64,000 bases of DNA, taken from positions 146,472 to 210,471 of the forward strand of contig DDWS01000013.1 of assembly GCA_002347685.1 (NCBI GenBank), given 5' to 3'. Under the pieces are notes generated by a model. The model searched no databases, was not told the DNA's origin, and worked only from the letters and a program-made list of their open reading frames with translations. A program made the position numbers and the translations under genes. This document shows, one piece after another, positions 7,120 to 28,980 of this stretch (position 1 is the stretch's first letter; the number at the start of each line of letters is the position of its first letter). This stretch comes from Syntrophaceae bacterium UBA2280. Its GTDB lineage: Bacteria; Desulfobacterota; Syntrophia; Syntrophales; Smithellaceae.

Positions 7120-7652
7120 GTTAAGTGTTCCTCCTAAGTTTTAGTTTTTTATATTTTCAAACGTTTACTCAACGTCTCACCACCTTGAAAAATCCCACCA
7201 GAAACCCTGCTGATCCGTATCACAAATCGGGATTGCGCCTGCAAACACGAGCGCTTTGGTACGCTTAAGGTGCAAGCAATGAGCAGCTGACTCACTGAAG
7301 AGGAAGTGCGCCACTGTTTGTGAGCACTTAAAATAACTTTGACCTTAAGCCGCAAAGCGTGTCGGAGAGCCCGCCTGCGCCAATTTCTTTTTTAAAAAAA
7401 CTGCTTGCCCCTGATACGCATCCTGATACGGGGCACGCCAGGAGATGTCATCCTGAAAGCCTTGAATCTCGCTGAATTTACGAACATGGGGTCATAATTT
7501 GACCGCAAGTCAATCTACCCTTGCGCTCTCACCTACCTTAATATGAACCCCGTGTCAAGAATTATTTGGGTTCGCAAAAGGGCAAAAAAACGCTTTCGGC
7601 GCAGAACCGCCAAATAAATATTATGTTAATAATATCAAAAGCATAGTTATCA

Positions 7653-8045
7653 TTATTTTTTACCACATGTCTTGGTCGCCGTAAATTTTTTTATCCCCTG
7701 ACGCCTCCGGCGCATCCATCTCACCGTCGCGCACGCCATATCGGGCAGCATCACCGCTTCGGCCACCTGAAAACTGACCCCTTCGAACGGATTGATCACC
7801 TGGCGAACGCCTTGCGACGGGAGGTATAGCTTGTCGCGATCTTCGGCTTTGGTGGTCTCACAGCAAAGGTCCGACCCGCCGCGCGGCTCGGTCAGGCATT
7901 CCGCCGCAAATGATAACAGAAAGCGGCCTGAATCTGTACAAATTTGGCTCTTTATACCGGTAAAAAAACGCCCTTGACTATTATTCATTATTGTGACCAA
8001 TGATCCGGCAATGCGAGCGTGTTGTTTTTTTAGAATACAGATCAT
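7653..8045 (-). CDS. Hypothetical protein (possibly a gene remnant; start uncertain)
   Basis: The C-terminal two thirds (LTEPRGGSDLCCETT...VRWMRRRRQG) use GC3-rich codons like neighbouring real genes. I see no recognisable family and no convincing RBS. Confidence 0.25.
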   Translation of the reverse strand: MICILKKQHARIAGSLVTIMNNSQGRFFTGIKSQICTDSGRFLLSFAAECLTEPRGGSDLCCETTKAEDRDKLYLPSQGVRQVINPFEGVSFQVAEAVMLPDMACATVRWMRRRRQGIKKFTATKTCGKK

Positions 8046-8067
8046 CTTTATTTAATCAATAAGACGC

Positions 8068-8106
8068 AACCACCGGACGCGCTTTTTGTTCTGGTGGTTT
8101 TTTGTT
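8068..8106 (+). terminator. Orphan plus-strand intrinsic terminator-like hairpin
   Basis: 10-bp stem aaccaccgga / ttctggtggtt with a 12-nt loop, then a run of six T. No annotated plus-strand gene lies upstream. It is about 200 nt upstream of the RRM gene. Confidence 0.5.
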
Positions 8107-8312
8107 CACACCGATGTGCAAACGGTGTTATTGAAAAAGATCATCGCATTGGCGATATCGACAAACCGGGCAAGTGTATCCGTCCGGCAGGTGAGGCATA
8201 CAAGCCCATCCCTTCAACCTTCCTTCTCAACCAGGAGCTGGACGGGGGTGAATTTGATGCTTTGTGGGGCCCCGTCGGGGAATGAAGATTAAAATGATGA
8301 AAGGGATAGAAG

Positions 8313-8666
8313 ATGAACAAGAATTTGTATGTCGGCAACCTGTCTTTCAAGGTCACGGATGAAGACCTGAAGGCAAATTTTTCAGAAGCGGGAGAAGTCG
8401 CCACAGCGGCGATCATCAAGGACAAATTCACCGGGCAGTCCAAGGGATTTGGATTCGTCGAGATGAAAACGGAAGAAGGCGCCACTCAGGCCATTGAGAA
8501 ATTTCACGGCGGCATGCTCGACGGCAAAGCCATTACCGTGAATGAAGCCAGACCCAAGAAAGAATTCAGCGCCGGTGGAAACCGCGGCGGTGGAAACCGC
8601 AGCGGTGGCGGCGGTGGCTTTGGCAATCGCAGCGGTGGCGGTGGCGGCGGTCGCGGCAGATACTAG
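8313..8666 (+). CDS. RNA-binding protein, single RRM domain with a Gly/Arg-rich tail
   Basis: 117 aa. RNP-2 is LYVGNL and RNP-1 is KGFGFVEM. The C-terminus reads GGNRGGGNRSGGGGGFGNRSGGGGGGRGRY. Confidence 0.9.
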   Translation: MNKNLYVGNLSFKVTDEDLKANFSEAGEVATAAIIKDKFTGQSKGFGFVEMKTEEGATQAIEKFHGGMLDGKAITVNEARPKKEFSAGGNRGGGNRSGGGGGFGNRSGGGGGGRGRY

Positions 8667-14545: not shown

Positions 14546-15727
14546 ATGGAAGACACAAAGAGTTTTGCCGAAATGTTTGAAGAATCCTACGCCACGCCCA
14601 AACATTTTTCAGTCGGTGAAAAGGTGGAGGCAACGATTGTCAATATTTCCCCTGAATGGGTTTTTGTGGACCTGGGCGCGAAAAGCGAAGGCTACATTGA
14701 CAAAAAAGAATTTCTCGCCGATGACGGCAGCCTGACGGTTAAAGAAGGAGACGTCATCACCGCATACTTTCTGTCATCGCGCCACAGTGAAAAACTCTTC
14801 ACGACCAAGCTGACCGCGAAAAAAAGCGTGGATGAATTCCTCGTCAACGCTTATCAAAACGCCATTCCCCTGGAGGCCATCGTTGAAAGGGAAGTCAAGG
14901 GAGGCTTTTCCGTAAGAATCAGCGCCAACGCGAACGGTTTTTGCCCCTTTTCGCAAATGGAAACGCGCAGAATCGACACTGCCGCGGATTATATTGGCAA
15001 AAAATTGGATTTTATCGTCATTGAATACGGAGAAAACGGCCGCAAGATCATCTTGTCGCGACGTCCTTTGCTCGAAAAAATCGAGCAGGACAAAATCGCC
15101 GGACTCAAAGAAACCCTCAAAAAGGGCATGACCGTGCAAGGCGTGGTCACCTCCGTGCGCGACTTCGGTGCGTTTGTCGATATCGGCGGCATGCAGGCGC
15201 TGCTTCCGGTTTCGGAAATGACCTGGGGCCGGGTGGACGATACGAAATCTCTCTATAAGCCGGGCGACACCATCGAAGCCGTCATCATCAACCTGGATTG
15301 GGAAAACGACCGCGTAACATTGTCCTTTAAGGACACCCTGCCGGATCCGTGGAATGAGGTTGTCCGCAATTACGTAGAAGGCAGCACCCACAGGGGTAAG
15401 GTCTCACGGCTGACGGATTTCGGCGCGTTTATCACGCTGGAGGCAGGCGTGGACGGCCTTTTGCATATCTCCAAGCTGGGCAAAGGAAAAAAGATCAAAC
15501 ACGCCCAGGATGTCTTGTCCAAAGATCGCGAAATCGACGTGAAGATCGAAAAGATCGACCGCGACAGCAGGAGAATTTCGCTGGACCTGGCATCCAACGA
15601 CGAGGGAAAACAGGCGGTAGACAAAGAAGAGAAAGACGATTATCAGAACTATCTGCCCAAGTCACCCAACACCATGGGCACCTTCGGAGATTTGCTGAGC
15701 GGGGCTAAAAAGAAGAAAAGCCCGTAG
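14546..15727 (+). CDS. S1 RNA-binding domain protein (four S1 repeats, Lys-rich tail)
   Basis: 393 aa. Repeated S1 signatures are present (GxxVxGxVxxxxxFGAFVDIGG, RLTDFGAFITL). It is shorter than a canonical six-domain RpsA. Confidence 0.75.
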   Translation: MEDTKSFAEMFEESYATPKHFSVGEKVEATIVNISPEWVFVDLGAKSEGYIDKKEFLADDGSLTVKEGDVITAYFLSSRHSEKLFTTKLTAKKSVDEFLVNAYQNAIPLEAIVEREVKGGFSVRISANANGFCPFSQMETRRIDTAADYIGKKLDFIVIEYGENGRKIILSRRPLLEKIEQDKIAGLKETLKKGMTVQGVVTSVRDFGAFVDIGGMQALLPVSEMTWGRVDDTKSLYKPGDTIEAVIINLDWENDRVTLSFKDTLPDPWNEVVRNYVEGSTHRGKVSRLTDFGAFITLEAGVDGLLHISKLGKGKKIKHAQDVLSKDREIDVKIEKIDRDSRRISLDLASNDEGKQAVDKEEKDDYQNYLPKSPNTMGTFGDLLSGAKKKKSP

Positions 15728-15758
15728 CCTTTAGCCTTTATCATGTCAATGTTGCGGT

Positions 15759-15819
15759 GTCATTTCGAAGGAGCCTTGACGACTGAGAAATCCAGGATTT
15801 CTCCTGCGGTCGAAATGAC
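15759..15819. repeat. Nested-palindrome REP/MITE-like element, copy A
   Basis: Outer arms are gtcatttcga / tcgaaatgac. The inner palindrome is gagaaatcc-a-ggatttctc. The reverse complement matches 33886-33921 (gtcatttcgaccgc(c)aggagaaatcc) with one indel. Confidence 0.7.
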
Positions 15820-16058
15820 ATTACCTGGTTGAGGCAACACCAGGAGGCTGTCCGAGACCTTCCTTTCGCAATACCAAAGATTTCGATGGAATTGATGGAC
15901 TAAAAATCGTTAATCCGTGGAAAGCCTCTTAATCATACGCCAACATTATTATCCGTTTCATTATCAGAGGGTTCTGCTTTTTCATGTCATCGTGGCGCCC
16001 AGCACTGCGGTTGATCGCCGATTATTTGACAGCAGCGACGGTAATGTCGAGATATTTC

Positions 16059-16072
16059 GTCAATTAATTGAC
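16059..16072. promoter_or_regulatory. Perfect 14-bp palindrome GTCAATTAATTGAC, candidate enhancer-binding-protein site
   Basis: Read directly. It lies about 100 nt upstream of the sigma-54 promoter at 16171. A second inverted repeat (ATGGCA-N13-TGCCAT) follows at about 16083-16107. Confidence 0.35.
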
Positions 16073-16170
16073 CTCTTTAATGGCATTCATTGCATCATTG
16101 CCATCACGGAACATCACATAAATTGAAATAAGATCATAATGATACACATGACAAGGGCAACAAAATGCCG

Positions 16171-16186
16171 TGGCACCAATATTGCA
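16171..16186 (+). promoter_or_regulatory. Sigma-54 (-24/-12) promoter of the sugar/glycosyltransferase operon
   Basis: TGGCAC-caata-TTGCA is an exact match to the TGGCAC-N5-TTGCA consensus. It lies 57 nt upstream of the rfbF ATG. Confidence 0.7.
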
Positions 16187-16242
16187 AAATGTCGGATTGT
16201 CGGATTTTACCCATAAGAAACCACAGGGGGTATGGATTCATC

Positions 16243-17022
16243 ATGAAAGTCGTTATCTTTGCAGGCGGAGCCGGAACGCGGATCTCGGAAGAGTCTTATT
16301 TGAAACCCAAACCAATGATCGAAATTGGCGAAAAGCCCATTCTCTGGCATCTGATGAAACTTTTTGAGGCCCAGGGATTCAATGATTTCATCATTTGCGT
16401 CGGCTATAAAAGCTTCATGATAAAGGAATATTTCCTCAATTATTACGTTTACAACTCGGATGTGACCGTCAATCTTCTGACAAACAGCTTCGAGGTGCAC
16501 CGGTCCAATACGGAAAAATTCCGTGTCACGTTGGTAGACACGGGCCTTCATACGCAAACCGCGGGACGTTTGAAGCGGGCCCGACAATATGTCGGCAATG
16601 AAGAATTTCTTCTGACTTATGGTGATGGACTGGCGGATGTTAACCTCAAGGTGCTGATTGATTATCACCATGAGCACGGGAAAATCGCCACGGTCACCGC
16701 TGTTCAGCCAGCAGGCCGCTTTGGACTTCTGGGGCTTGAGGACGACGCGCGTGTGTCGAGTTTTAAAGAAAAAACACTGGGAGATGGCGGATGGATCAAC
16801 GGGGGCTTCTTCGTTCTGAAACCGGACGTCTTCGACTATCTGCCGGAAAACTCCGATCAATTGATGTGGGAGGATGCCCCGCTGGAAAAACTGTCCGCGG
16901 AAGGTCAACTAGTCGCCTATAAGCATCACGGGTTCTGGCAATGCATGGACGCCATGCGCGATAAGGAAATACTCGAACAGCTCTGGCGCTCAGGACAGGC
17001 GAAATGGAAGATGTGGGAATAA
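16243..17022 (+). CDS. rfbF: Glucose-1-phosphate cytidylyltransferase
   Basis: MKVVIFAGGAGTRISEES...KPKPMIEIGEKPILWHLM and the C-terminal WQCMDAMRDK are typical of RfbF. I place the start at the ATG at 16243. Confidence 0.9.
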   Translation: MKVVIFAGGAGTRISEESYLKPKPMIEIGEKPILWHLMKLFEAQGFNDFIICVGYKSFMIKEYFLNYYVYNSDVTVNLLTNSFEVHRSNTEKFRVTLVDTGLHTQTAGRLKRARQYVGNEEFLLTYGDGLADVNLKVLIDYHHEHGKIATVTAVQPAGRFGLLGLEDDARVSSFKEKTLGDGGWINGGFFVLKPDVFDYLPENSDQLMWEDAPLEKLSAEGQLVAYKHHGFWQCMDAMRDKEILEQLWRSGQAKWKMWE

Positions 17023-17036
17023 ATCGCGGATAACCT

Positions 17037-18128
17037 ATGTTCGACAATATTTATTCAAATAAGAATATTCTCATCACAGGACACACGGGATTCAAGGGAT
17101 CATGGCTGGCCCTGTGGCTTTCGCAACTCGGCGCACAAATCACCGGTTACTCATTACAACCACCCACAGACCCGAACCATTTTCAGTTGCATGATCTCCA
17201 TATCAACTCCGTGATTTGTGATATTCGCAACGCGGATAAACTCAAACAAGTTTTCCAAGAGCAGCAACCGGAAATCGTTTTTCATCTGGCCGCGCAGGCC
17301 ATTGTCCGGCGATCCTACCGCGAACCGGTGGAAACATTTACAAGCAATGTACTGGGCACGATTAATCTGCTGGAAGCCGCGAGGGCCTGTGACTCCGTTC
17401 GCGCCATCGTGATCGTCACCAGCGACAAATGCTATGAAAACAAGGAATGGTTTTGGGGCTATCGCGAAATCGATCCGCTGGGCGGATATGACCCCTACAG
17501 CGCCTCGAAAGGGTGCGCTGAAATCGTCACCGGTTGCTGGCGCAATTCCTATTTCAACCCGAAGGATTATGGCAAAAGCCATCAGACGCTTCTTGCCAGC
17601 GCCCGCGCCGGCAATGTGATTGGCGGCGGCGACTGGGCAGCCGATCGCCTGATTCCGGACATCATGCGCGCGACGGCACAATCTCAAAAAGTAACGATTC
17701 GCAATCCCCACGCGACCCGCCCCTGGCAGCATGTTCTTGAACCTCTGAGCGGCTATCTGCTGCTGGGTCAAAGACTTCTGGAGGGCCGCAAGGAATTTGC
17801 CGACGCGTGGAATTTCGGACCTTCCGAGGAAGAAAATCTCAGCGTCGATGAAATCGTCGGTCAGGTTAAAGCGCTCTGGCCGAAAATGGATTATCATATT
17901 GAGGGATCACCGGATCAACCCCACGAAGCGGGCCTGCTTCGGTTGGATTGCTCTAAAGCCCGCGCCCAATTACAATGGGCGCCTGCATGGACCGGCAGCA
18001 ATGCCGTTGAGAAAACCGTCTCCTGGTATAGAAATTTTTATGAAACCGGTATAATATTGAGCATGGATCATCTTCATCAATATGTTGCAGACGCGCAAAA
18101 CAAACACATCGCATGGGCGGAAAAATGA
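17037..18128 (+). CDS. rfbG: CDP-glucose 4,6-dehydratase
   Basis: 363 aa. SDR motifs are ITGHTGFKGSWL and YSASKGCAE. Confidence 0.9.
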   Translation: MFDNIYSNKNILITGHTGFKGSWLALWLSQLGAQITGYSLQPPTDPNHFQLHDLHINSVICDIRNADKLKQVFQEQQPEIVFHLAAQAIVRRSYREPVETFTSNVLGTINLLEAARACDSVRAIVIVTSDKCYENKEWFWGYREIDPLGGYDPYSASKGCAEIVTGCWRNSYFNPKDYGKSHQTLLASARAGNVIGGGDWAADRLIPDIMRATAQSQKVTIRNPHATRPWQHVLEPLSGYLLLGQRLLEGRKEFADAWNFGPSEEENLSVDEIVGQVKALWPKMDYHIEGSPDQPHEAGLLRLDCSKARAQLQWAPAWTGSNAVEKTVSWYRNFYETGIILSMDHLHQYVADAQNKHIAWAEK

Positions 18129-18661
18129 AATTTATCGAAACAAAACTTCAAGGCGCGTTCATCATTCGGCCGGATCTCATTGAAGACGAGCGAGGTTTCT
18201 TTGCCCGCACTTTCTGCCGACGTGAATTTGAAGAACATGGCTTAAATACCAATCTGGTTCAGTGCAACATTTCCTTCAACAAACAAAAAGGAACCCTGCG
18301 CGGCATGCATTATCAGGTTCCGCCGCATGCCGAGGCCAAGCTGGTTCGCTGCACGGCGGGAGCCATTTACGACGTCATCATCGATCTACGTGCCGCTTCA
18401 TCAACATTCAAGCAATGGTTTGCAGTGGAGCTGACAGCCGAAAATCATCAGTTGCTCTACGTTCCGGAAGGCTTTGCGCACGGATACCAAACGCTACGTC
18501 CGGATACGGAAATCCTTTATCAAGTATCCGAATTCTATCATCCGCAAAGTGAAGAAGGTGTCCGTTGGAATGATCCGGCTTTTGGAATAGTATGGCCGCT
18601 ACCTGCTACTGCCATGTCCGGCAAAGATGCATCCCATCCTGATTGGGGGGCAGACAAATGA
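18125..18661 (+). CDS. Sugar-nucleotide 3,5-epimerase, RmlC-like cupin (probable CDP-4-keto-6-deoxyhexose epimerase)
   Basis: MKFIETKLQGAFII..DERGFF...GTLRGMHYQ..P..EAKLVRC is an RmlC-family pattern. There is an ATGA overlap with the rfbG stop. Confidence 0.8.
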   Translation: MKFIETKLQGAFIIRPDLIEDERGFFARTFCRREFEEHGLNTNLVQCNISFNKQKGTLRGMHYQVPPHAEAKLVRCTAGAIYDVIIDLRAASSTFKQWFAVELTAENHQLLYVPEGFAHGYQTLRPDTEILYQVSEFYHPQSEEGVRWNDPAFGIVWPLPATAMSGKDASHPDWGADK

Positions 18662-19797
18662 AAGTCAGACTTTTTCAACCTTCCGTGGGACAAGAGGAGC
18701 TAAATGCCATCCAGGAAGCTTTTAATGATGCCTGGATTGGCCTTGGGCCGAAAGTAACGGAATTTGAAAATGCATGGCGCAATTTTATCGGCTGTAGACA
18801 TGCCGTGGGCATGAATTCGGCTACCGCGGCCTTACATCTGGCCTTGGCCGTCTATCGCTTCCCTAGGGGCAAGAAAGTCCTTATCCCCGCGGTAACATTT
18901 GTCGCCACCGCAACCGCCGCCTTGTATTGCGGTTTGCAACCGGTGTTTGTGGACGTTCGCGAAGACACCCTGGGCATGGATTTGGATGATCTCGAGCGTA
19001 AAATTGATCCGGATTGCGTGGCGGTAATGCCTGTGCATCTCTGCGGGCATCCCGTCGAAATGGACAGGCTGCTTGCTATCGCTCATAAAAACAGTCTCAA
19101 AGTAATTGAAGACTGTGCGCATACTGCGGGCGGTATATACAAAGGAAAAACTTTGGGTACCTGGGGAAATATCGGCTGCTTTTCATTTGAAGAAAAAAAG
19201 TGCATGACCACAGGCGACGGGGGAATGTTTTGCACGGATGACGAGGAATTGGTGGCTCCCGTTCGCGCCATGCGCTGGGTCGGTATCGATAAAGACACAT
19301 GGAAACGAAACGTCGGCTACACCTGTGAAGGCATCGAAGACCGCCACTGGTATTATGAGATTTCCTTGCTGGGATACAAGTACAACATGAATGACCTGGC
19401 AGCCTCCATTGGTCTGGTCCAGCTGCGAAAACTGCCAGAGATGAACGCGAGAAGAACCGCAATCATCGCTCGCTACCTGGATGGAATTGAGCACCTTGAA
19501 CATATCAGGCCACTTATCCCCTATGATTTATCCGGCGGAAATGTTTACCACATATTTGGAGTGCGGACTGACGCCAATAACCGCGACAATCTGATGCGCT
19601 ATTTAAAACAGCATGAAATTTCCACAGGCCTACACTACACGCCGCTGACACTCCATCCTCTTTTCCGCGCTCACAAAGAGGCAGTACCAAACGCACTATC
19701 GGTTTATCATCAAATTATGACTCTTCCGCTTCATGCGGCTTTGACCGACCAAGAAGTCGATTATGTCATCGACGCAATTTGTAGATGGAGCAAATGA
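18658..19797 (+). CDS. DegT/DnrJ/EryC1/StrS family sugar aminotransferase
   Basis: The family pattern is present (AVGMNSATAALHLAL, FSFEEKKCMTTGDGGM). There is an ATGA overlap with the upstream stop. Confidence 0.9.
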   Translation: MKVRLFQPSVGQEELNAIQEAFNDAWIGLGPKVTEFENAWRNFIGCRHAVGMNSATAALHLALAVYRFPRGKKVLIPAVTFVATATAALYCGLQPVFVDVREDTLGMDLDDLERKIDPDCVAVMPVHLCGHPVEMDRLLAIAHKNSLKVIEDCAHTAGGIYKGKTLGTWGNIGCFSFEEKKCMTTGDGGMFCTDDEELVAPVRAMRWVGIDKDTWKRNVGYTCEGIEDRHWYYEISLLGYKYNMNDLAASIGLVQLRKLPEMNARRTAIIARYLDGIEHLEHIRPLIPYDLSGGNVYHIFGVRTDANNRDNLMRYLKQHEISTGLHYTPLTLHPLFRAHKEAVPNALSVYHQIMTLPLHAALTDQEVDYVIDAICRWSK

Positions 19798-19836
19798 CAG
19801 CTGTCTTAAAAGATCCGAAAAAATGAGAAAAATATC

Positions 19837-20484
19837 ATGAAACAAAAACCGTCCATAAACCCAATTTCATCGATCCTGAAAAATCATTACGAAAAGAGTT
19901 TCGAAAAATTCGGCCCAAGTTCTGCTGGCGTTGATTGGGGACAGGACAAAACCAGAATGCTTATAAGATATAATAATATGTTGGATCTTGTGGAAAAACC
20001 GCAAGCACGCAAAAAGCAGTCTCTTCTGGATGTGGGTTGCGGTTTCGGCGGTCTGGCAGCTTATGCGCGCCAAAAAGACATCGCTTTAAATTATACCGGG
20101 ATTGACGTTGCAACAAACATGATCCGGTGGGCTAAAAAAAATATTAAGCAGTCAAAATTTATCGAAGACGATTTTCTCGCGCACGATTTTTCCGGAGCAA
20201 CTTACGATTATATCATCTGTAATGGTATACTGACTCAAAAGCTGGATTGCAGTCTGCGCGAAATGGATGTGTTTGCCAAAGCCTTGATTCATAAAATGTA
20301 TAGCTTGTGTAAAAAGGGCATCGCTTTCAATATCATGACGACCTATGTTAATTTTTTTGCTCCCAATCTTTATTACAAGCATCCGGCCGAATTACTTTCT
20401 TATTGCCTGTCCGAATTGAGCACGAAGGTAAAAATCGATCACGCGTACGGGCTTTATGAATTCACCGTATATGTGTACAGATGA
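19837..20484 (+). CDS. Class I SAM-dependent methyltransferase
   Basis: 215 aa, with motif I LLDVGCGFGGLAAYA. Confidence 0.7.
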   Translation: MKQKPSINPISSILKNHYEKSFEKFGPSSAGVDWGQDKTRMLIRYNNMLDLVEKPQARKKQSLLDVGCGFGGLAAYARQKDIALNYTGIDVATNMIRWAKKNIKQSKFIEDDFLAHDFSGATYDYIICNGILTQKLDCSLREMDVFAKALIHKMYSLCKKGIAFNIMTTYVNFFAPNLYYKHPAELLSYCLSELSTKVKIDHAYGLYEFTVYVYR

Positions 20485-20492
20485 GGAATGAC

Positions 20493-21143
20493 ATGGCAGA
20501 CATCATTATTTACGGAACCGGCCTTATTGCCGAAGTTGCGCATTTCTATTTCACACACGATACCGGACGGCACATCGCATGCTTTACAAATGCCGGCTCA
20601 TTTATTAAAGAATCCACCCTTCTCAATCTGCCTGTGGTGCCTTTTGAAAATATTGAGGCGCTTTTCCCTCCCGAGCACTACGACATGTTTATCGCAATCG
20701 GTTATACCAAAACGAATCAAATTCGTCAGCAGAGATACGCGGAGGCAAAAGCAAAGGGCTATCGGCTTGTAACCTATATAAGCTCACGGGCGGCATATTA
20801 CGCAACGCCGGTAGGCGACAATTGTCTCATCCTGGAAAATAACGTGATCCAGCCATACGTGACCATCGGCAACAATGTCACCTTATGGTCGGGCAATCAC
20901 ATTGGACATCATTCAGTCATTGAAGACCATTGTTTTATCAGCTCTCATGTCGTCGTCTCGGGATCCTGTTATATTGAAGAAAACTGTTTTCTGGGTGTCA
21001 ACAGCACATTAAGGGACAATGTAAGAATCGGAAAACTGTCCGTCATAGGTTCCGGAGCGACCGTTATGAAAAATTGCGGTGAACGGTCCCTGGTTCAGCC
21101 GGCAAAATCAAGGCATGAAATCATAGAAAAAGACATAATCTGA
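20493..21143 (+). CDS. NeuD/PglB/VioB-type sugar N-acetyltransferase (left-handed beta-helix)
   Basis: The N-terminus is IIIYGTGLIAEVA and the C-terminus carries hexapeptide repeats (IGNNVTLWSGNHIGHHSVIEDHCFISSHVVVSG). The start may be 20481 or 20493. Confidence 0.8.
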   Translation: MADIIIYGTGLIAEVAHFYFTHDTGRHIACFTNAGSFIKESTLLNLPVVPFENIEALFPPEHYDMFIAIGYTKTNQIRQQRYAEAKAKGYRLVTYISSRAAYYATPVGDNCLILENNVIQPYVTIGNNVTLWSGNHIGHHSVIEDHCFISSHVVVSGSCYIEENCFLGVNSTLRDNVRIGKLSVIGSGATVMKNCGERSLVQPAKSRHEIIEKDII

Positions 21144-21150
21144 AGGAAAG

Positions 21151-22110
21151 ATGCAAAGTCGGGATCAGCTGATGAATATGAAGTGGAAAAAAAAGGGGCA
21201 AATCTTTGTTCCGCCAGGTAACGGATTTTTCAAGACTCACGTAACCCGTTCAATACCTTATCGTATCGATCCTTCAACATTACGCATTTATTTTTCATCG
21301 CGCAGCAGCGAAGACATCCCATACCCTACCTTCATAGACGTTGACCCCGCATGTCCAGATAGGATATTACATATCAACGCAACTCCAATGATGGACTTGG
21401 GCAGAACCGGAACTTTTGACGACTCGGGTATCACGCCAACATGTATTCTGAAGCATAAAAATCAAGTAATGATGTATTATGTCGGATGGAAAAGGCGTCG
21501 CTACGGTGTTACCATTGAAGCATCCATCGGGCTTGCAATTTTAACCGACCACGGCACCAAGTTAAAAAGATGTTTTGAAGGCCCTATTATAGGTCAGGAT
21601 AAAAATCATCCCATCATGACGGCGGCACCTTTCGTTTTGTTTGACAATCGCAGATACAGAATGTGGTATTGTTCCGCTACAGAATGGAGGCAATGCAGCG
21701 GATCACCCGAACCCATTTATACCGTATGCTACGCTGAATCGGAAAACGGAATAGATTGGAAACCGCTAAGAAAACCTATTATACAAAACAGATTTGATGG
21801 CGAAGTTGTTTCTGCGCCATGGGTAATCAAGGCAGGCAACATTTATCACATGTGGTATTCAACGCGAGGTTCCGCGACAAACGAAGATAAGAAGTTCGTC
21901 ATTGGTTACGCAAAATCCCCTGATGGCGTCAAGTGGCGGCGCCTTGACAGCCAAGCGGGAATTGAGCGGTCGGAAGACGGATGGGATTCCGAAATGATTT
22001 GTTATCCTTCATTCTTTACCCATAAGGATATTACCTATATGTTTTACTCCGGCAACAATGTCGGGAAAGGCGGGCTCGGCTACGCCGAGACGAAAAATTT
22101 TCTATTGTGA
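21151..22110 (+). CDS. Uncharacterised beta-propeller-like protein (GH32/43/130-like fold suspected) of polysaccharide clusters
   Basis: 319 aa. Repeated W/Y-rich blade-like segments are present (MMYYVGW, YRMWYCS, YHMWYST, YMFYSG). The family assignment is tentative. Confidence 0.4.
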   Translation: MQSRDQLMNMKWKKKGQIFVPPGNGFFKTHVTRSIPYRIDPSTLRIYFSSRSSEDIPYPTFIDVDPACPDRILHINATPMMDLGRTGTFDDSGITPTCILKHKNQVMMYYVGWKRRRYGVTIEASIGLAILTDHGTKLKRCFEGPIIGQDKNHPIMTAAPFVLFDNRRYRMWYCSATEWRQCSGSPEPIYTVCYAESENGIDWKPLRKPIIQNRFDGEVVSAPWVIKAGNIYHMWYSTRGSATNEDKKFVIGYAKSPDGVKWRRLDSQAGIERSEDGWDSEMICYPSFFTHKDITYMFYSGNNVGKGGLGYAETKNFLL

Positions 22111-22121
22111 GGAAGTAACCG

Positions 22122-22847
22122 ATGTCCGTCACCATCGTTATATTGCAACCGATGTTTATTCCCTGGTTGGGTTTATTTGAGCAAATCCGGTTATCCGATA
22201 TTTACGTGCATTACGACGATGTGCAATTGCCACAGGGCCGGAGTTTTACAACGCGCGTGCAGATTAAAACATCCGCCGGTATCACATGGCTGACTGCGCC
22301 GGTCGATCGAACGCATTCGGGTGCCATGATCAACGAAACTTGCCTGGTTCAGGATAACAATTGGCGTATCAAACATCTTAAAAGCTTAAAGCAGTGGTAC
22401 GCACGCGCGCCTTTTGTTGACACGATGATGGAAATAGCAAATCAGATATACGCTTTCGATTCAAACAATCTTGCTTTATTTAATCTTCACGCCATTGAAT
22501 TAGTCACTGCATGGCTTGGCTTAAAGACTCGTTTTTCGAGCTCATCGGAGTTGGGAATAGCAGGATCAAGCACCAGGCGCCTGGTGGATATTTGTCAGTA
22601 TTACAAAGCGGATACATATGTGACCGGATTGGGTGCGCTTCATTATCTCGATTATGAACAGTTTGAGAGTTACGGCATATCGGTCAGATACATGGACTAT
22701 GAAAAAAGGACCTATCCCCAGTTACATGGAACCTTCACGCCTTTTGTCTCCATTCTGGATACCATAGCCAATTGCGGCAGGAAGACCGAAGAATTAATCC
22801 GTTCCGGGGCAATTTACTGGAAAGACTTCCTGTTGCGCGGGCAATAG
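22122..22847 (+). CDS. WbqC-family protein
   Basis: 241 aa. The N-terminus ILQPMFIPWLGLFEQIRLSDIYVHYDDVQ is characteristic of WbqC-like proteins. Confidence 0.75.
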   Translation: MSVTIVILQPMFIPWLGLFEQIRLSDIYVHYDDVQLPQGRSFTTRVQIKTSAGITWLTAPVDRTHSGAMINETCLVQDNNWRIKHLKSLKQWYARAPFVDTMMEIANQIYAFDSNNLALFNLHAIELVTAWLGLKTRFSSSSELGIAGSSTRRLVDICQYYKADTYVTGLGALHYLDYEQFESYGISVRYMDYEKRTYPQLHGTFTPFVSILDTIANCGRKTEELIRSGAIYWKDFLLRGQ

Positions 22848-22908
22848 ACAATTTTAGGGAGTGCCAGATAAAGAATCTCTATTTCCATCATAGCGCTCAG
22901 GGGGAACA

Positions 22909-24150
22909 ATGAATCAGGAAAACAAGCAGCAATTAACGCTGCTGAACACAATCAGCGATGCCGTTGAATACATTAAAATCAAACCCGAAGCCGAACAACA
23001 CCTGTATCAACGCCTTAAAGAAGCTTTTCTGGCTATTGGCTTACCCACCCGAAATCGCATGATTGAACTCCTGGACACGCTTCCGACGAACAGGTCGCAG
23101 CTGGATGAATTTGCAAAGCTCTTTGATAAGTGGCTGGACTTAAACATCATTGCCTTATCCAATCGCATCAGGACATCGGATTCCTATAAAAAAGGGCTTT
23201 ATGGCGCCGATAGAAAATTTAATGAATTAATCAGCCTGATTAACGGAAGTCATGCACAGACGCTTATCACCCACGCGATGGACTGTCTGCAAAAAATCAG
23301 GGACGAAAACCCGCCTCTCTATGAATTTCTCACCGTCGGATATCGCGGCTGGTATTTCGAAAACAACTGGCTAGATGGAATCGGCGGTAAAAATAATTCT
23401 CTCATAAACAACAGAATAACGACTTTAAAGAACAACATATCCAAATTCGAATGGTTCTACGACCACTTGGAAGATAACCTGTCAAAGCGATCTCTCAACG
23501 CCCTTATAAACAATTGGTTGACCTTTTCGATGAATGAGGCTCTCGATGTTTCGCTGTATGCATCGCACAATGTCGTGGCCAACACGGACATTTTTCCTCT
23601 TTATGAAAATGAGGTCTTTGTTGATTGCGGCGCTTACGTCGGAGACACCGTGGCCGATTTCGTCAACGAGTTCAACAGAGGCTATCGAAATATCTACACC
23701 TACGAGATTTCAGCGCCAACCGTCGACATTATGAAAAAGCATCTCCAAAACCTCCGGAATGTCATTTACAATGTGAAAGGCGTAGCGGATCAGAAAGGGG
23801 AATTAAGTCTTGCAGGCGTTGATGGACCTTTTCTCGGCAACCGGCTGGTAGAAGGCAAAGGAATTAAAAAGGTCCCTATCGTTAAGCTTGACGATGATAT
23901 TCAGGAACCGATTACGTTTCTCAAAATTGACGTCGAAGGATTGGATAAACAGGCTATCCTCGGCGCAAAAGAACAGATCGCCCAGCATCATCCCAAAATG
24001 CATATCGATACTTATCATAAACTGGCCGACGTGGTTGATGTGCCACTATTGGTTCACAGCATTGATCCAACCTACAGGTTTTATCTGAGGCTGACGAACT
24101 CCACCGAAAATAAAATGATGTTCGCAATTTCTTGTATTTATCCAATATGA
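22909..24150 (+). CDS. FkbM-family methyltransferase with an N-terminal extension of unknown function
   Basis: The C-terminal half carries FVDCGAYVGDT ... FLKIDVEGLD (FkbM motifs). The N-terminal roughly 200 aa are unassigned. Confidence 0.7.
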   Translation: MNQENKQQLTLLNTISDAVEYIKIKPEAEQHLYQRLKEAFLAIGLPTRNRMIELLDTLPTNRSQLDEFAKLFDKWLDLNIIALSNRIRTSDSYKKGLYGADRKFNELISLINGSHAQTLITHAMDCLQKIRDENPPLYEFLTVGYRGWYFENNWLDGIGGKNNSLINNRITTLKNNISKFEWFYDHLEDNLSKRSLNALINNWLTFSMNEALDVSLYASHNVVANTDIFPLYENEVFVDCGAYVGDTVADFVNEFNRGYRNIYTYEISAPTVDIMKKHLQNLRNVIYNVKGVADQKGELSLAGVDGPFLGNRLVEGKGIKKVPIVKLDDDIQEPITFLKIDVEGLDKQAILGAKEQIAQHHPKMHIDTYHKLADVVDVPLLVHSIDPTYRFYLRLTNSTENKMMFAISCIYPI

Positions 24151-24162
24151 GGGGGTTTTTCT

Positions 24163-27100
24163 ATGCGGTTTTCTATTTGTTTGGTCGAACCCGATGGGTA
24201 TCGGTTCTCACACTTTCTTTATGATACATGCAAATACCTTTGCTATACGATTGAAGCAAACGGCTTTGATTGTTGCATGGTCAAGAATAAATTCTTCCAG
24301 GATCGAATCAATCTTATCTTAGGCGCACACAATCTCAAAGATCCCAACGTCGTCAACATAATCCGGCGGGCGGGAAAATACATCATCATTCAATCCGAAG
24401 TTCTCACAGAAAACGGGATAGCAGGCTGGAACAACCAAGCATCTTTTACCGACGTTTATCTGCCACTAATGCTGCATGCATACGCTGTATGGGATGGCAT
24501 GGAATCCAATCAGACATACATGCAGAGGGCCGGAATCAGCGCGGATATAATTCCTCATTTCGGCTACCTTTCTGCATTGAAGGAGGTGATACCCAAAAAA
24601 AGCAAAGATATAGACTTTTTATATTATGGTTCCCTGACGCCACACAGAAAAAAGATGATAGACGAACTTAAAAAACGCGGGGGCAATGTTGTCTGTATCT
24701 TTGATGAATCTGCAATTTTTCGAAATGATTATATTGCGAGAGCGCGCATTAACTTGGCACCAAGACAGACACCAGAAAACGACCACATGACATCAAGAAT
24801 ATTATATCTGCTGAATAATCAATCAATTGTAGTTGTTGAACGTTGTCGCGACCAAGCATGGGTTGAACATTGTTTTTTATCTGCAGACACCGATAAATGG
24901 GCCGAATTGTGTATGCAGACCTTGCAGCGCTCCGATCTGGATTCACTCGCCGACCAATGCTTTGAGAATTATAAAAAACTCGATATGACAGGGCTGTTCC
25001 GGCCGCTGCTGAAAAAGCTTTGTGATGAACAAGAAATCAGCAAACCAAATATATCAATGACCTCCCAAGAGAAAAAAAGCATTATAGAAAATGATGCCCA
25101 TTCAGATGATCCTGCACCACCGTTCTTAAAAGAAATAAACATACCCGGCCTGACTTCCATCATCATCCTCACGCACAATCGGCTCGAACAAGCCAAAAAA
25201 TGCGTAAAAAGCATTCGCAGGCACACGCCAGAAGCGCATGAGATTATTTTTGTCGATAACGGATCGACCGACGGCACCGTTAAATGGCTGCAAAGTCAGA
25301 TTCGGGAAAATAAGAACTATCAATTGATTGAGAATAGAGAAAACGTTGGCGTGGCAAAGGGCCGCAATCAGGGCATGAATCTATCACAAGGGGAATTTCT
25401 ACTGCTTCTGGATAATGATGTCATCGTCAGTGAAGGCTGGCTATCCGGCATGCAGGAATGCCTGAAGCACGCGCCGGATGCCGGCATTGTCGGACCGATG
25501 ACCAACAGCAAATCTGGTCTTCAGCAGATAGCGGATGAATCTTATCGATCGGTCGATTATCTCGATAAGTACGTGGCAAAGTTTAAAGAGCAATACCGTC
25601 ATCGCCGGATTTCCAGCCGAAACATCACGGGATTCTGCCTGTTGTTCAAGCGCGCCCTGGTGGAGAAGATCGGCCTGCTCGATGAACGCTTTGACACCGG
25701 TCGTTTTGAAGATGAGGATTTCTGCTGGCGCTCGGCGCTGGAGGATTATCGGAACTACATCGCGGGGGATGTTTTTGTCCACCATAACGGAAGTAAAACA
25801 TTGCCGGGTGATCGGAAAATCTTAGAGACAAAGTGGACGCTCAGCATGGCCAGCCCCGAGGGAAAGAAGCTGGCGGTGCTGAGGGCAACAGAGTTGGCCA
25901 ATACCTATTATGTAAAAGGGTATATGGATCAGGCCGTGGAAACACTGGTCAATTGTATAAAATATACGCCGGACGAGCCGCAAATTTATTATGAGCTGAC
26001 CCGTTTTTTCATTGAATCTAAAAAATTTCCCGAAGCAAGGGACGTTGTCGCCTCCATGCCGGAAACGGCGAAAAACCATTTGAGAGGGCTGGAATGCGCA
26101 AGTTATGCCAAAGAGGGCTTAGGGCTGGATGATGAAGCGGCGGCCTTTGCCGATCAGATGTTGTCTCAACACGAAAACAATTCCGCAGCACTGAATCTGA
26201 AAGGCGTTTTGGCATTCAAAGAAGGTAAAAAGGAAAAAGCGCAGGATTTCTTCCAAAAAGCGATCAGCGCCGATCCGGGTTACGCAGAAGCCTATACCAA
26301 CCTGGGTGTTTTGTACTGGGGAATGGAAAATACGGATGCAGCTTTTTCCCATCTGAAAAAAGGGTTTATGCTGTCACCTGCGATTCCTGATGCCAGTTCA
26401 CTTTATTATTCGGTCGTCTCGTCTTTAGGCCGTTTTTCTGAAGCCGAATCGGATTTCAAAGAAGCCTGTCGTCTAAATCCCAACCACAAAAATCTTGCTT
26501 TTCTCCTGATTGATATTCTCATTCAACAGGGCAAGTTTGATGCAGCAATCATCAAGATCGAAGATGCGCTTGCCTTGTTTGGACTCGACGATGGCACTCT
26601 GAAAGCGGCTCTGGCTGTTCGCGAAAAGATCGGCCCGATGGAAATCGAAAAACCGGGCCAAAAAGGATCCTTGTCCATTTGCATGATTGTAAAAAATGAG
26701 GAAAAGCATCTGGTCAGATGCTTAAAAAGCGTCCGGGATGTGGTTGATGAAATGATCATTGTTGATACGGGCTCGACGGATAAAACGGTTAATATCGCAA
26801 AAATATTTGGCGCAAAAATTTACGAATTCCCCTGGACGGGCGATTTTGCCGCAGCCCGTAATGAGTCGCTAAAATATGCGACCGGTGATTGGACGCTAAT
26901 CCTCGACGCCGACGAAGTCATCGCCGAACGTGATTTTGATGAATTGAAAACATCAATCCACAAGCGCTCACCATCAAAAGCCGCCTATTCGATTGCCACA
27001 AGGAATTATACCAACGATATCGGACTGCTCGGGTTTGCACCCAACGATGGAAAGCATTCGGAAGAAGCAGGTGCCGGATGGGTGCCGAGCGCAAAGGTCC

Positions 27101-27927
27101 GTCTGGCACCACGAGGAAAAGATATATTTTTTATCAATCCGGTCCATGAGCTACTGGAGCCATCATTAAAATCAACTAAAATCCCCATCTATCCCAGCAA
27201 GATTATCGTTCATCATTATGGAAAGTTAGACATTCATAAAGACGCTCAAAAGGGCGAAGATTACTATCTGTTAGGAAAAATCAAGTACGAAAGCGATCCG
27301 ACAAACTTGAAAGCTATTTTTGAACTGGCCAAGCAGTCCCATTTGCTCAATAAGTATGACGAGGCCACAGAGCTGTGGCTCAAGCTCCTGGCACTTATAG
27401 AAGCCGACCCTCAATCATCAGGTTTTCAGGAAATTGTCCGGAGTACTCACGGGGATCCCTTGCCGGAAATTTATATTCAGCTTGCCTCGGCCTACTTGCT
27501 GCAGGATCGTTTTGATGAGGCTTTGCAGACAGCAAGCAAAACGCTGGAGGCTAAAGTTAAGCTCAAAGAATATATCAATATTTACGCGTTGTGCGAAATC
27601 ATAGCCGGTTCGTTGGACAAAGCATCTTATGAACTCAAAGAAACCCTTAAAACAGCGCCCGACTACGCGCCCGCACATCTATTGATGGCCGTCATTTCCT
27701 GTTTGAAAGGGGAAAAAGAACAAACGCAGGAACTATTGGGACTATTGCGGCAAAAACAAATCCAGATAACGGGCCACTTAAACAAGCTAGCCAAGCAACT
27801 TTATACTCGCGCGAGGAAGGATGAGGCGTTACTGATTCTCAACGCAACGATTGAAAACAATATAAGCAATGCTGAAACAATCGCGCTGCTTGAGGAATAC
27901 CAGAAAGGGCAACGGAATACTGGTTGA
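24163..27927 (+). CDS. 1254-aa multidomain glycosyltransferase: N-terminal GT-B/CgeB-like domain, GT2 domain, TPR block, second GT2 domain, second TPR block
   Basis: GT2 #1 is TSIIILTHNRLEQAKKCVKSI...FVDNGSTDGT...LLLLDNDV. GT2 #2 is LSICMIVKNEEKHLVRCLKSV...IIVDTGSTDKT...LILDADE. TPR-like repeats lie between and after the two GT2 domains. Confidence 0.75.
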   Translation: MRFSICLVEPDGYRFSHFLYDTCKYLCYTIEANGFDCCMVKNKFFQDRINLILGAHNLKDPNVVNIIRRAGKYIIIQSEVLTENGIAGWNNQASFTDVYLPLMLHAYAVWDGMESNQTYMQRAGISADIIPHFGYLSALKEVIPKKSKDIDFLYYGSLTPHRKKMIDELKKRGGNVVCIFDESAIFRNDYIARARINLAPRQTPENDHMTSRILYLLNNQSIVVVERCRDQAWVEHCFLSADTDKWAELCMQTLQRSDLDSLADQCFENYKKLDMTGLFRPLLKKLCDEQEISKPNISMTSQEKKSIIENDAHSDDPAPPFLKEINIPGLTSIIILTHNRLEQAKKCVKSIRRHTPEAHEIIFVDNGSTDGTVKWLQSQIRENKNYQLIENRENVGVAKGRNQGMNLSQGEFLLLLDNDVIVSEGWLSGMQECLKHAPDAGIVGPMTNSKSGLQQIADESYRSVDYLDKYVAKFKEQYRHRRISSRNITGFCLLFKRALVEKIGLLDERFDTGRFEDEDFCWRSALEDYRNYIAGDVFVHHNGSKTLPGDRKILETKWTLSMASPEGKKLAVLRATELANTYYVKGYMDQAVETLVNCIKYTPDEPQIYYELTRFFIESKKFPEARDVVASMPETAKNHLRGLECASYAKEGLGLDDEAAAFADQMLSQHENNSAALNLKGVLAFKEGKKEKAQDFFQKAISADPGYAEAYTNLGVLYWGMENTDAAFSHLKKGFMLSPAIPDASSLYYSVVSSLGRFSEAESDFKEACRLNPNHKNLAFLLIDILIQQGKFDAAIIKIEDALALFGLDDGTLKAALAVREKIGPMEIEKPGQKGSLSICMIVKNEEKHLVRCLKSVRDVVDEMIIVDTGSTDKTVNIAKIFGAKIYEFPWTGDFAAARNESLKYATGDWTLILDADEVIAERDFDELKTSIHKRSPSKAAYSIATRNYTNDIGLLGFAPNDGKHSEEAGAGWVPSAKVRLAPRGKDIFFINPVHELLEPSLKSTKIPIYPSKIIVHHYGKLDIHKDAQKGEDYYLLGKIKYESDPTNLKAIFELAKQSHLLNKYDEATELWLKLLALIEADPQSSGFQEIVRSTHGDPLPEIYIQLASAYLLQDRFDEALQTASKTLEAKVKLKEYINIYALCEIIAGSLDKASYELKETLKTAPDYAPAHLLMAVISCLKGEKEQTQELLGLLRQKQIQITGHLNKLAKQLYTRARKDEALLILNATIENNISNAETIALLEEYQKGQRNTG

Positions 27928-28015: not shown

Positions 28016-28399
28016 TTAATCCGCCGGACTGCCACGGAGCCCGGCGGCCAGATTCAGGTTGATATCCATAATGATCTTGAGCTTTTCCGGCTGAGGGTCG
28101 GCCATGATCTGAATGATGCGGTTGTCGATAAATACACTGAGCGTCAGGATGCTCTGGCGGATCTCGATCGGAAGCGGATTATCGTCTCTGACCAGTTCCG
28201 ACTGGAGGATGCTCCAGACGACCTGGTTGGTTCTAAGCGCTTCGGCCAAGAGGTCATCACGATCAGGCGTGTCCCAGTTTTTCACGCAATCGGACAAAAG
28301 CAGCGCGCAACGTGTCAGCGCGGCGGCCTCGATGTCTCTCCCCGACATATTATCGGTTTTCTGTGCTGTTCGATAGGCTTCGAGTTCTCTCGGATACAC
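28016..28399 (-). CDS. flaF: Flagellar biosynthesis regulator FlaF, paralog 1
   Basis: 127 aa, with a GTG start. The FlaF pattern is present (AYRTAQ...REIEAAALTRCALLL...NQVVWSILQSEL...NPLPIEIRQSILTLSVF). Confidence 0.75.
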   Translation of the reverse strand: MYPRELEAYRTAQKTDNMSGRDIEAAALTRCALLLSDCVKNWDTPDRDDLLAEALRTNQVVWSILQSELVRDDNPLPIEIRQSILTLSVFIDNRIIQIMADPQPEKLKIIMDINLNLAAGLRGSPAD

Positions 28400-28461: not shown

Positions 28462-28602
28462 AGCCCATGCAACGTAATAGATACTTTCAAGGCTGATCAT
28501 AATCGTCGATAAAACCTGACCAATCTTGATGATACTGGCATTTATCGGATGAATAATGTAGGATAGCAGACACAAAGGCAAACGATATTGCAGAGGAAAA
28601 CT

Positions 28603-28980
28603 GTGAAAAACGATATCTGTCATGAACTGCGGAACAAAAAACCCCTTATGCCGGTTCTGCCGGATGAGCAAAAAGTGAACGAGCAGGATTCTCTTTCGTT
28701 ATCTTTGCTACGACCATCTTTGTTCTGGGATGTGAATCCGGATAGGCTGGACGCAGACCGGCATGCAGCCTTCATTATTGTCCGTGTTATGGAACGCGGC
28801 ACACGGGAAGATGTCAACACCGTCTGGCATTATTACGGTGAGGAGACTATAAAAATACATCTTTTAGCCGCGAGATCATTGCATAAAAAGACCATTTCCT
28901 ATTTTGCAAATAAGTTCAGTGTCAGCCGCGCACAATTTAAAAGCTTTCACCACGGAGAGCAGGTCCAGCCATGGCCTTAA
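28603..28980 (+). CDS. Small partner protein of the AbiEii-like nucleotidyltransferase (putative antitoxin-like; LFWD motif family)
   Basis: It contains PSLFWDVNPDRLD...HAAFIIVRVMERG, a pattern I recognise from proteins encoded upstream of AbiEii-like genes. The start is ambiguous (28588 TTG, 28603 GTG after AGAGGA, or 28648 ATG). The 3' end overlaps the next gene by 10 nt. Confidence 0.5.
   Translation: MKNDICHELRNKKPLMPVLPDEQKVNEQDSLSLSLLRPSLFWDVNPDRLDADRHAAFIIVRVMERGTREDVNTVWHYYGEETIKIHLLAARSLHKKTISYFANKFSVSRAQFKSFHHGEQVQPWP

Follow-up and report, generated by a model that had tools for sequence, protein, structure and literature searches.

A sugar operon next to a flagellin gene appears to be switched on together with flagellar genes in an uncultured Smithella-like syntroph

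In the 64,000-nt stretch of contig DDWS01000013.1 of Syntrophaceae bacterium UBA2280 analyzed here (the window), a ten-gene sugar operon led by rfbF lies behind a sigma-54 promoter with two upstream activator boxes, close to a flagellin gene. The best explanation of these sequence features is a sigma-54 module, activated by a protein of the FleQ/FlrA type, that drives a flagellin-glycan operon within the flagellar hierarchy; we assign this reading a probability of about 0.75. The operon appears to be switched on together with the flagellar genes of this uncultured Smithella-like syntroph. This reading rests on motifs and their conservation, on a shared regulon, on gene functions and on synteny, all shown by computation. 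A first-pass annotation, made from the letters of the window, had already proposed that a sigma-54 glycan operon is wired into the flagellar hierarchy, and that proposal is supported here by the conserved -24/-12 element, a FleQ/FlrA-type footprint, the occurrence of the same module at motility genes, and the linkage to flagellin.

The promoter region of rfbF contains the following elements.
16171-16186, plus strand: sigma-54 -24/-12 promoter TGGCAC-CAATA-TTGCA, an exact match to the consensus TGGCAC-N5-TTGCW
16196-16198 (about 16197), plus strand: predicted transcription start, with C16185 taken as -12 and standard sigma-54 geometry
16226-16230, plus strand: ribosome-binding site GGGGG
16243-16245, plus strand: rfbF start codon ATG

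Reading of positions 15700-16500 confirmed the promoter element that the first-pass annotation had recognized, as well as the 57 nt that it had counted from the end of the -12 element to the ATG at 16243. The element carries GG at -24 and GC at -12 with the exact 10-nt spacing, and it lies on the rfbF strand inside a 515-bp intergenic region. The window contains the exact pattern TGGCACN5TTGCW a single time, where shuffles predict 0.05; allowing up to two mismatches gave no excess (21 observed, 36 expected). The sequence MKVVIFAGG begins all RfbF orthologues, and the gene call in the source contigs concurs with the start codon. The predicted 5' untranslated region (UTR) of about 46 nt showed no significant folding (z = +0.96), and an Rfam scan of the whole window returned no matches, indicating no riboswitch or known small RNA in the leader. 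A gene for a GAF-AAA+-HTH_8 activator at 47346-48929 suggests that the organism uses sigma-54; rpoN is not within the window. A sigma-70 promoter was also considered, and scanning of the intergenic region gave weak matches only (9-10 of 12 positions).

The -24/-12 element is more than a chance match, as its conservation indicates. It is kept upstream of rfbF in nine of ten Syntrophales loci, six times exactly, once as a TGGCAT variant and twice as aGGCAT-N5-TTGC, with the surrounding sequence otherwise diverged. The gene on its 5' side varies: loci L002, L003 and L009 (L numbers denote loci fetched for comparison) have an S1-protein gene there, L005 and L006 a TPR gene. The element is also kept ahead of other cassettes, in L061, L070, L082 and L019. 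Among the glycan-operon promoters compared (window, L002-L006, L009, L019, L061, L161, L195 and L214), the five nominally free bases between -24 and -12 are alike (CAATA, CGATA, TGATA, TAATA) even in non-syntenic loci, which hints at common promoter descent or an extra constraint.

Two boxes and a spacer precede the promoter.
16017-16030: box 1, GCCGATTATTTGAC, imperfectly palindromic, centre at about -173 relative to the predicted start, TTGAC half-site conserved
16059-16072: box 2, GTCAATTAATTGAC, a perfect 14-bp palindrome, centred at about -131
16073-16170: spacer between box 2 and the promoter, 98 nt, 63% A+T, the presumed looping region

The 14-bp palindrome of the first-pass annotation is box 2, and it was confirmed as a phylogenetic footprint about 100 nt upstream of the promoter with a match to the FleQ/FlrA/DVU2894 motif; the conserved half-palindromic box 1 was missing from that inventory of upstream sites. 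The suggestion that the distance suits enhancer-binding proteins also held, since -131 and -173 are typical upstream-activating positions. There are seven perfect 14-bp palindromes in the window against 4.2 in shuffles, so the palindrome alone is unremarkable; the sequence and position of box 2 are conserved in relatives. We aligned six syntenic loci from Smithellaceae/Syntrophaceae (window, L002, L003, L009, L061 and L070), and the invariant columns were almost confined to the two boxes and the -24/-12 element; the only exceptions were the start codon and two columns of an ATG alignment within the spacer. Box 1 reads GCCGrTTATTTGAC in L002, L003 and L061, and L070 and L009 have variants of it. 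Box 2, whose conserved core plus flanks is TTTCGTCAA-N4-TTGACC (16055-16073), is kept in L003, L009, L061 and L070 and has one mismatch in L002 and L004. The spacing from box 1 to box 2 is 40-43 bp in all six loci (42 bp in the window), or about four helical turns. The gap from box 2 to the promoter is 98 nt in the window and 82-100 nt in L003, L009, L061 and L070; in L002 and L004 it is wider, at 168-213 nt. All of these fall within the range of roughly 80-250 nt that was required of such a site. The fetched loci, 1.46 Mb in all, contain 14 exact GTCAA-N4-TTGAC boxes. Three of these fall within the coding sequence of rfbF, and that of the window is found again in two identical source contigs; of the independent boxes outside coding sequence, six are followed at 96-150 nt by a sigma-54 promoter.

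Box 2 fits the inverted repeat GTCA-N6-TGAC with an A/T-rich centre and matches 13 of the 14 positions of the Pseudomonas aeruginosa FleQ consensus GTCaNTAAAtTGAC, as quoted in PMC6120874. Kazakov et al. 2015 (PMC4641369) gave yGTCA-N6-TGACr as the predicted site of DVU2894, a FlrA/FleQ-like activator of Desulfovibrio vulgaris, and the FlrA-bound flrBC region of Vibrio cholerae contains GTCA-N6-TGGC (PMC4641369).

We then scanned 185,579 genomes, one per species and 596 Gb in all, for the combined pattern GTCAANWWWTTGAC-N{78,108}-TGGCAYN5TTGC. At least 120 matches of box, 78-108 nt and sigma-54 promoter were found in the whole collection, against about eight expected by hand arithmetic assuming equal base frequencies. 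Among the matches listed, most came from Thermodesulfobacteriota ('Deltaproteobacteria'), Nitrospirota and Acidobacteriota, with some from Sphingomonadales. The first downstream open reading frame (ORF) of each listed match (n = 109) was clustered by BLAST and annotated from one representative per cluster. These first ORFs encoded FliL (16), PilZ (10), sigma-54 activators, that is, enhancer-binding proteins (6), AMIN-TPR proteins (6), FliA-like sigma factors (6), MotA (5), ParA/MinD-like ATPases (4), PAS histidine kinases (4), REC-GGDEF proteins (3), PseB (2), and FlgK, CheR, an MCP and a cytidylyltransferase-like protein (one each). PilZ is encoded by the first gene of a pilZ-motA-motB operon that adjoins cheA, cheY, cheX and cheB.

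The same module occurs at glycan and motility genes within single genomes. In Smithella co265_149 it precedes rfbF (L009/L170) and pilZ (L097), in AnMBR.bin530 it precedes rfbF (L004) and pilZ (L191) on a single contig, and in Smithella co269_128 it precedes a pseB-like gene (L195) and pilZ (L133). UBA4059 has a box-preceded pilZ-motAB (L154), and its rfbF locus (L001) has the sigma-54 element with no detectable upstream box. The search for the palindrome at other flagellar operons that the first-pass annotation had proposed was thus positive in the genomes of close relatives, namely at pilZ-motAB in rfbF-carrying metagenome-assembled genomes (MAGs).

Two further observations came from these matched loci. 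In Smithella locus L122 (2114-2238), a FleQ-type box is bidirectional, common to divergent sigma-54 promoters, one of which serves pilZ-motAB; on the other side a TGGTAT-N5-TTGCT element (TGGTATGTAATTTGCT) precedes genes for a 920-aa TPR protein, a PAS kinase and a REC-AAA+-HTH activator, the last two being a FlrB/FlrC-like pair. In the Clostridia (L124, L142 and L178; Clostridium/Clostridioides), the box and sigma-54 pattern stands ahead of prdC, a non-flagellar proline reductase gene, and these matches reflect either chance or a different activator with a similar half-site.

The operon behind the promoter spans 16243-27927 and comprises ten genes, all on the plus strand, with intergene gaps of -19 to +61 nt.
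16243-17022, plus strand: rfbF, glucose-1-phosphate cytidylyltransferase (NCBIfam equivalog TIGR02623, E 4e-116; Pfam match)
17037-18128, plus strand: rfbG, CDP-glucose 4,6-dehydratase (NCBIfam equivalog TIGR02622, E 2e-152; Pfam match)
18113-24150, plus strand: sugar-tailoring genes for an RmlC-like epimerase, a DegT aminotransferase, an S-adenosylmethionine (SAM) methyltransferase, a hexapeptide acyltransferase, a GH43/130-like protein, WbqC and an FkbM methyltransferase
24163-27927, plus strand: last gene of the operon, for a 1254-aa GT2-TPR-GT2-TPR protein (Pfam), the candidate flagellin glycosyltransferase

The closest relatives of RfbF are in Syntrophales MAGs (84-90% identical), and DNA identical to the window is present in the Joint Genome Institute (JGI) metagenomes 3300002702 and 3300040971. 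None of the ten operon products has a transmembrane-like segment (19-residue hydropathy, maximum 1.77), and the operon encodes no Wzx, Wzy, ABC exporter, initiating transferase or other membrane, polymerase or export protein. Residues 835-959 of the 1254-aa protein, its second GT2 domain, have Listeria GmaR (22ao_A, E 1e-25) as their best non-TPR PDB match, and its TPRs resemble those of O-GlcNAc transferase. The products of this ten-gene sugar operon most likely decorate the neighboring flagellin.

The rfbF operon converges on a flaF-flbT-flagellin locus, in which flaF and flbT are annotated as regulators of flagellin translation and secretion.
28016-28399, minus strand: flaF, 127 aa (NCBIfam FlaF equivalog)
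28588-29588, plus strand: AbiEii-type toxin-antitoxin pair between the two flaF copies
29638-30048, minus strand: second flaF, 136 aa (NCBIfam FlaF equivalog)
29993-30400, minus strand: flbT (NCBIfam FlbT equivalog)
30408-30890, minus strand: gene for a 160-aa conserved protein between flbT and flagellin, with no Pfam or NCBIfam match
30960-32276, minus strand: flagellin gene, 438 aa, central domain 27% Ser+Thr
32428-32454, minus strand: near-consensus sigma-28 (FliA) type promoter TAAAGTTT-N11-TCCGATAA, about 150 nt 5' of the flagellin ATG (32276)

The FliA consensus is TAAAGTTT-N11-GCCGATAA. The flagellin leader is roughly 140 nt long, and a leader of this length could be the target of translational control by FlbT/FlaF. 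The Ser/Thr-rich central domain of the flagellin is compatible with glycosylation.

This arrangement is kept in other Smithellaceae with different contents. L061 and L070 are laid out like the window, with an S1 gene, box 1, box 2, a sigma-54 promoter, and a cassette that converges on flaF-flbT-flagellin. Their flanks are closely related to those of the window (S1 protein 81-83%, FlbT 83-87% and FlaF 74-76% identical), whereas the cassette differs, consisting of genes for a hexapeptide acyltransferase and a 1420-1436-aa methyltransferase-GT2-TPR-GT2-TPR protein. The GT2-TPR core of the window protein is about 51% identical to the terminal cassette gene product of L061 and L070, and the flagellins of the three loci (438 aa in the window, 716 and 603 aa in the other two) align at their termini only. 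In AnMBR.bin530 the box-preceded rfbF operon (L004) and flagellin (L020) share a contig, at a distance of about 10 kb. Cassettes found behind the module include rfbF-led CDP-sugar operons and acyltransferase plus methyltransferase-GT2-TPR pairs, and elsewhere pseB-led operons.

The two flaF copies are highly similar, and the syntenic L061 and L070 have a single flaF. In the AbiEii-type pair, the toxin (28971-29588) has a Pfam match, and the putative partner ORF (28588-28980) matches no family. The 160-aa protein is 68% identical in L061, where its position is kept, and may be an uncharacterized flagellar accessory protein.

A candidate class of activator emerged from the genes next to the boxes. 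In many matched loci these encode activators that end in ...AA.LL.[LM][NK]RTT[LF][VI]EK and bear the recognition helix of FleQ, NRTTLVEK. The best PDB match of this domain of the box-adjacent activators is P. aeruginosa FleQ (8p53_C, RRTTLVEKMRKYG / ...RAAERLRIRRTTLVEKMRKYG). A search with one such activator retrieved FleQ/FlrA of Pseudomonas, Shewanella and Photobacterium together with the Syntrophales proteins L221 and L222, which are REC-AAA+-HTH proteins with the same helix from order-level relatives; the gene of L222 adjoins cheW, cheR and HDOD genes and a hybrid kinase gene. None of the best 80 relatives of the FleQ-helix activator was from Smithellaceae. The GAF-type activator of the window (47346-48929) was considered as a dedicated regulator and judged unrelated, as it adjoins glutamate-synthase-like genes. 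In other 'Deltaproteobacteria', flagellin loci (L045, promoter at 1430; L084, promoter at 4015) contain genes for activators of about 354 aa that have a FleQ-type helix but no receiver, and the position of these genes behind boxless sigma-54 promoters suggests a regulatory cascade.

Binding by an activator, DNA looping, the transcription start, the order in which genes are expressed and the acceptor of the glycan are inferences from these features. A FleQ/FlrA-family enhancer-binding protein would bind box 1 and box 2, which lie on the same face of the helix about four turns apart, and would touch the closed sigma-54 holoenzyme at TGGCAC-N5-TTGCA by looping of the AT-rich 98-nt spacer. Hydrolysis of ATP by the activator would then open the promoter, with transcription starting near 16197. 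The predicted ten-gene transcript would supply the enzymes for a CDP-activated, aminated, methylated and acylated 6-deoxyhexose, which the cytoplasmic GmaR-like GT2-TPR enzyme would transfer to flagellin. The glycan machinery would probably be made in an early, master-regulator tier, ahead of its flagellin substrate, because the same type of box serves pilZ-motAB, fliL, fliA-like, flhG-like and fleS/fleR-like genes and the flagellin promoter is of the sigma-28 type. Flagellar control, as the first-pass annotation had proposed, is retained in this scheme; the reference of that annotation to middle flagellar genes was imprecise, as the box type is that of the early class II tier of FleQ/FlrA and not that of FlrC/FleR.

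Several observations weigh against this scheme. No upstream box within one mismatch was found in the rfbF-led loci L001, L005, L006, L008 and L010, all of which retain the sigma-54 element, so the box is not universal for the rfbF operon. The box was also absent within 300 nt of the sigma-54 promoters of flgF/G-like (rod), flagellin and activator genes in related flagellin loci; its absence at the rod-gene promoters indicates that it marks one tier only, and we read the boxless promoters of flagellin loci as a different regulatory tier and did not count them against the model. A search for the cognate FleQ-helix activator was negative in the window, in the adjoining 10 kb on the left, which hold metabolic and MBOAT genes only, and in the Smithellaceae loci examined; the sole activator gene in the window is the GAF-type one, 30 kb from the promoter. 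The spacer of the window contains no match to the IHF consensus WATCAANNNNTTR within one mismatch. In addition, the FleQ consensus performs poorly across the genome of P. fluorescens in predicting chromatin immunoprecipitation sequencing (ChIP-seq) peaks (PMC6120874).

Details of individual relatives accompany these results. In L010 (promoter at 5085), a different perfect palindrome, TTTCTAATGGCCGCCATTAGAAA, lies about 215 nt upstream of the sigma-54 promoter in place of the FleQ-type box, suggesting another activator in that species. Exact IHF consensus sites are present in the spacers of L009 and L070 only.

One alternative is that the boxes are bound by a non-flagellar activator, for example one acting on envelope or exopolysaccharide genes or responding to cyclic di-GMP, and that the operon makes a general surface sugar for O-antigen, capsule or S-layer, its proximity to flagellin being coincidental. 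Modules of rfbF, rfbG, rmlC and degT are indeed classic O-antigen genes, FleQ in Pseudomonas also controls exopolysaccharide genes, REC-GGDEF, AMIN-TPR and GT2 genes are among those preceded by the box, and the examined part of this genome, the window and 10 kb to its left, revealed no cognate activator. An operon of that kind is nevertheless difficult to reconcile with the lack of Wzx/Wzy, an ABC exporter, an initiating transferase or any membrane protein, and with a sole transferase that is soluble, carries TPRs and is akin to GmaR, a flagellin glycosyltransferase. Coincidental proximity is likewise opposed by the linkage to flagellin kept in L061, L070 and AnMBR.bin530, and by the covariation of cassette, transferase and flagellin central domain between flanks that remain 74-87% identical; the box-preceded genes, moreover, are mostly flagellar among the matches listed. 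We therefore regard a general surface sugar as improbable. Given a flagellar role, the FleQ-type protein might still act mainly as a switch or repressor, a role of FleQ at the pel and psl promoters in Pseudomonas, or the operon might belong to the later FlrC/FleR tier, so that the boxes would not simply be early class II sites. FleQ in Pseudomonas is bifunctional and acts through two boxes at some promoters, L005 and L006 have box-like sequences downstream of the promoter, and an FlrBC-like pair is present in Smithella. Against this, -131 and -173 are upstream-activating positions, the 78-108-nt geometry is the same at fliL, fliA-like and motA genes, for which activation is the rule in known systems, and sigma-54 promoters are silent without an activator, with no further conserved site present. 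A switch, repressor or later-tier role is unlikely on this evidence.

The consensus match and the palindrome could also be non-functional, with transcription of the operon coming from an unrecognized sigma-70 promoter or reading through from the S1 gene. A single 14-bp palindrome is ordinary in 64 kb, as the shuffles showed, positions 16113-16140 weakly resemble a sigma-70 promoter (9 of 12), and the intergenic scan found no terminator-like site after the S1 gene. However, exactly these elements are selectively conserved across species and contexts, the combined pattern is in large excess, and the genes downstream of it are functionally coherent, which makes a chance origin very improbable.

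The FleQ/FlrA-type sigma-54 module that we favor resembles several known systems. The class II promoters of FleQ (Pseudomonas) and FlrA (Vibrio, Shewanella) likewise combine a sigma-54 -24/-12 element with an upstream GTCA-N6-TGAC repeat. Their target types (fliL, flhF/fleN-like, fleSR-like and fliA) overlap with those of the box-preceded genes, and the RTTLVEK helix is present in box-adjacent activators of Thermodesulfobacteriota; the differences are the host, a member of the Syntrophales, and the target, a glycan operon. The N-terminal domain of the candidates also departs from that of FleQ, being an ordinary REC domain in the Syntrophales proteins L221 and L222 and lacking a receiver in L045 and L084. 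The regulon of DVU2894 in D. vulgaris (PMC4641369) shares the predicted FlrA/FleQ-like activator, the yGTCA-N6-TGACr motif and flagellar operons read from sigma-54 promoters. It was, however, reconstructed for Desulfovibrionales, and the main text of PMC4641369 does not contain 'glycosyl', whereas the motif here occurs in Syntrophales, as a two-box array ahead of a flagellin-glycan island.

Control of flagellin-glycosylation enzymes by RpoN/FlgR is known in Helicobacter pylori and Campylobacter jejuni (PMC3930126). There, too, sigma-54 places these enzymes inside the flagellar hierarchy, but the activator is FlgR, of the middle tier, the sugars are pseudaminic or legionaminic acid and not a CDP-hexose derivative, and the transferase is from another family. 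Listeria monocytogenes GmaR, the flagellin O-GlcNAc transferase, is like the window protein a soluble combination of GT2 and TPR, although the window protein is a double GT2-TPR of twice the size, with a different donor sugar. In Listeria, GmaR also acts as an anti-repressor. In Caulobacter, FlaF and FlbT control flagellin, the TPR glycosyltransferase is FlmG, and the flagellin promoter is of the sigma-54/FlbD type. The window is similar in that flaF and flbT adjoin flagellin and a TPR-bearing transferase is encoded beside them, and different in that its flagellin promoter is of the sigma-28 type and its sugar pathway is CDP-based.

Because sigma-54 control of flagellin glycosylation is known in Epsilonproteobacteria, the result is a well-supported yet unsurprising extension of known flagellar regulation and leaves current concepts unchanged. 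Modestly new are the syntrophic Smithellaceae lineage and the two-box 'socket' retained ahead of interchangeable glycan cassettes. For uncultured Smithella-like syntrophs, the model provides a motility wiring that would run from a master activator through sigma-54 operons for the stator, regulators and glycan machinery to a sigma-28 flagellin. The FleQ/FlrA box, experimental in Gammaproteobacteria and predicted in Desulfovibrio, is extended to many Thermodesulfobacteriota, with flagellin-glycan islands added to its targets. The signature of box and promoter may aid annotation by flagging flagellin-modification cassettes and motility genes in MAGs.

A broader proposition, which we judge about as likely as not, is that the S1-flaF site of Smithellaceae is a fixed socket of two FleQ-type boxes and a sigma-54 promoter behind which glycan cassettes are exchanged, with cassette, transferase and flagellin surface domain covarying. 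On the same proposition, the pairing of GTCA-N6-TGAC with the RTTLVEK helix would be an ancient flagellar master-regulator code, running from Gammaproteobacteria to Thermodesulfobacteriota, Nitrospirota and Acidobacteriota, with a regulon that routinely includes flagellin glycosylation and the PilZ-MotAB unit.

Two other repeats in the intergenic region had been drawn into the first-pass annotation.
16080-16104: inverted repeat ATGGCA-N13-TGCCAT within the spacer, an 11-nt arm pair, 82% complementary
16191-16206: tandem GTCGGATT x2, overlapping the predicted start site

Both are present as described, and neither exceeds chance. Eight 6-bp inverted repeats occur in the intergenic region against 2.9 expected (maximum 11), and ATGGCA-N13-TGCCAT is absent from all orthologous regions; it was accordingly rejected as a conserved candidate for a second activator site. 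The tandem repeat had been placed wholly in the 5' UTR, but it straddles the predicted start at about 16197. There is one tandem 8-mer locus against 1.04 expected, the repeat is unconserved, and the UTR has no significant fold, so it was dismissed both as a UTR element and as CsrA-like GGA sites; among the relatives, L070 alone has two GGA motifs near the start.

Just 3' of the S1-protein gene, at 15758-15820, nested perfect inverted repeats pair TGTCATTTCGA/TCGAAATGACA around GAGAAATCC/GGATTTCTC, with no T-tract after them and no Rfam match; at the equivalent position L061 has an ordinary terminator hairpin. Farther away, about 1.2 kb (7120-8312) without a convincing ORF or Rfam match lies 5' of the gene for a glycine-rich RRM RNA-binding protein (8313-8666). 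A possible second sigma-54 promoter, TGGCATGACTTTGGCA (49126-49141, plus strand), has correctly spaced GG and GC and is situated between the GAF-AAA+-HTH gene (47346-48929) and a 376-aa ORF, which is followed by the glutamate-synthase-like genes.

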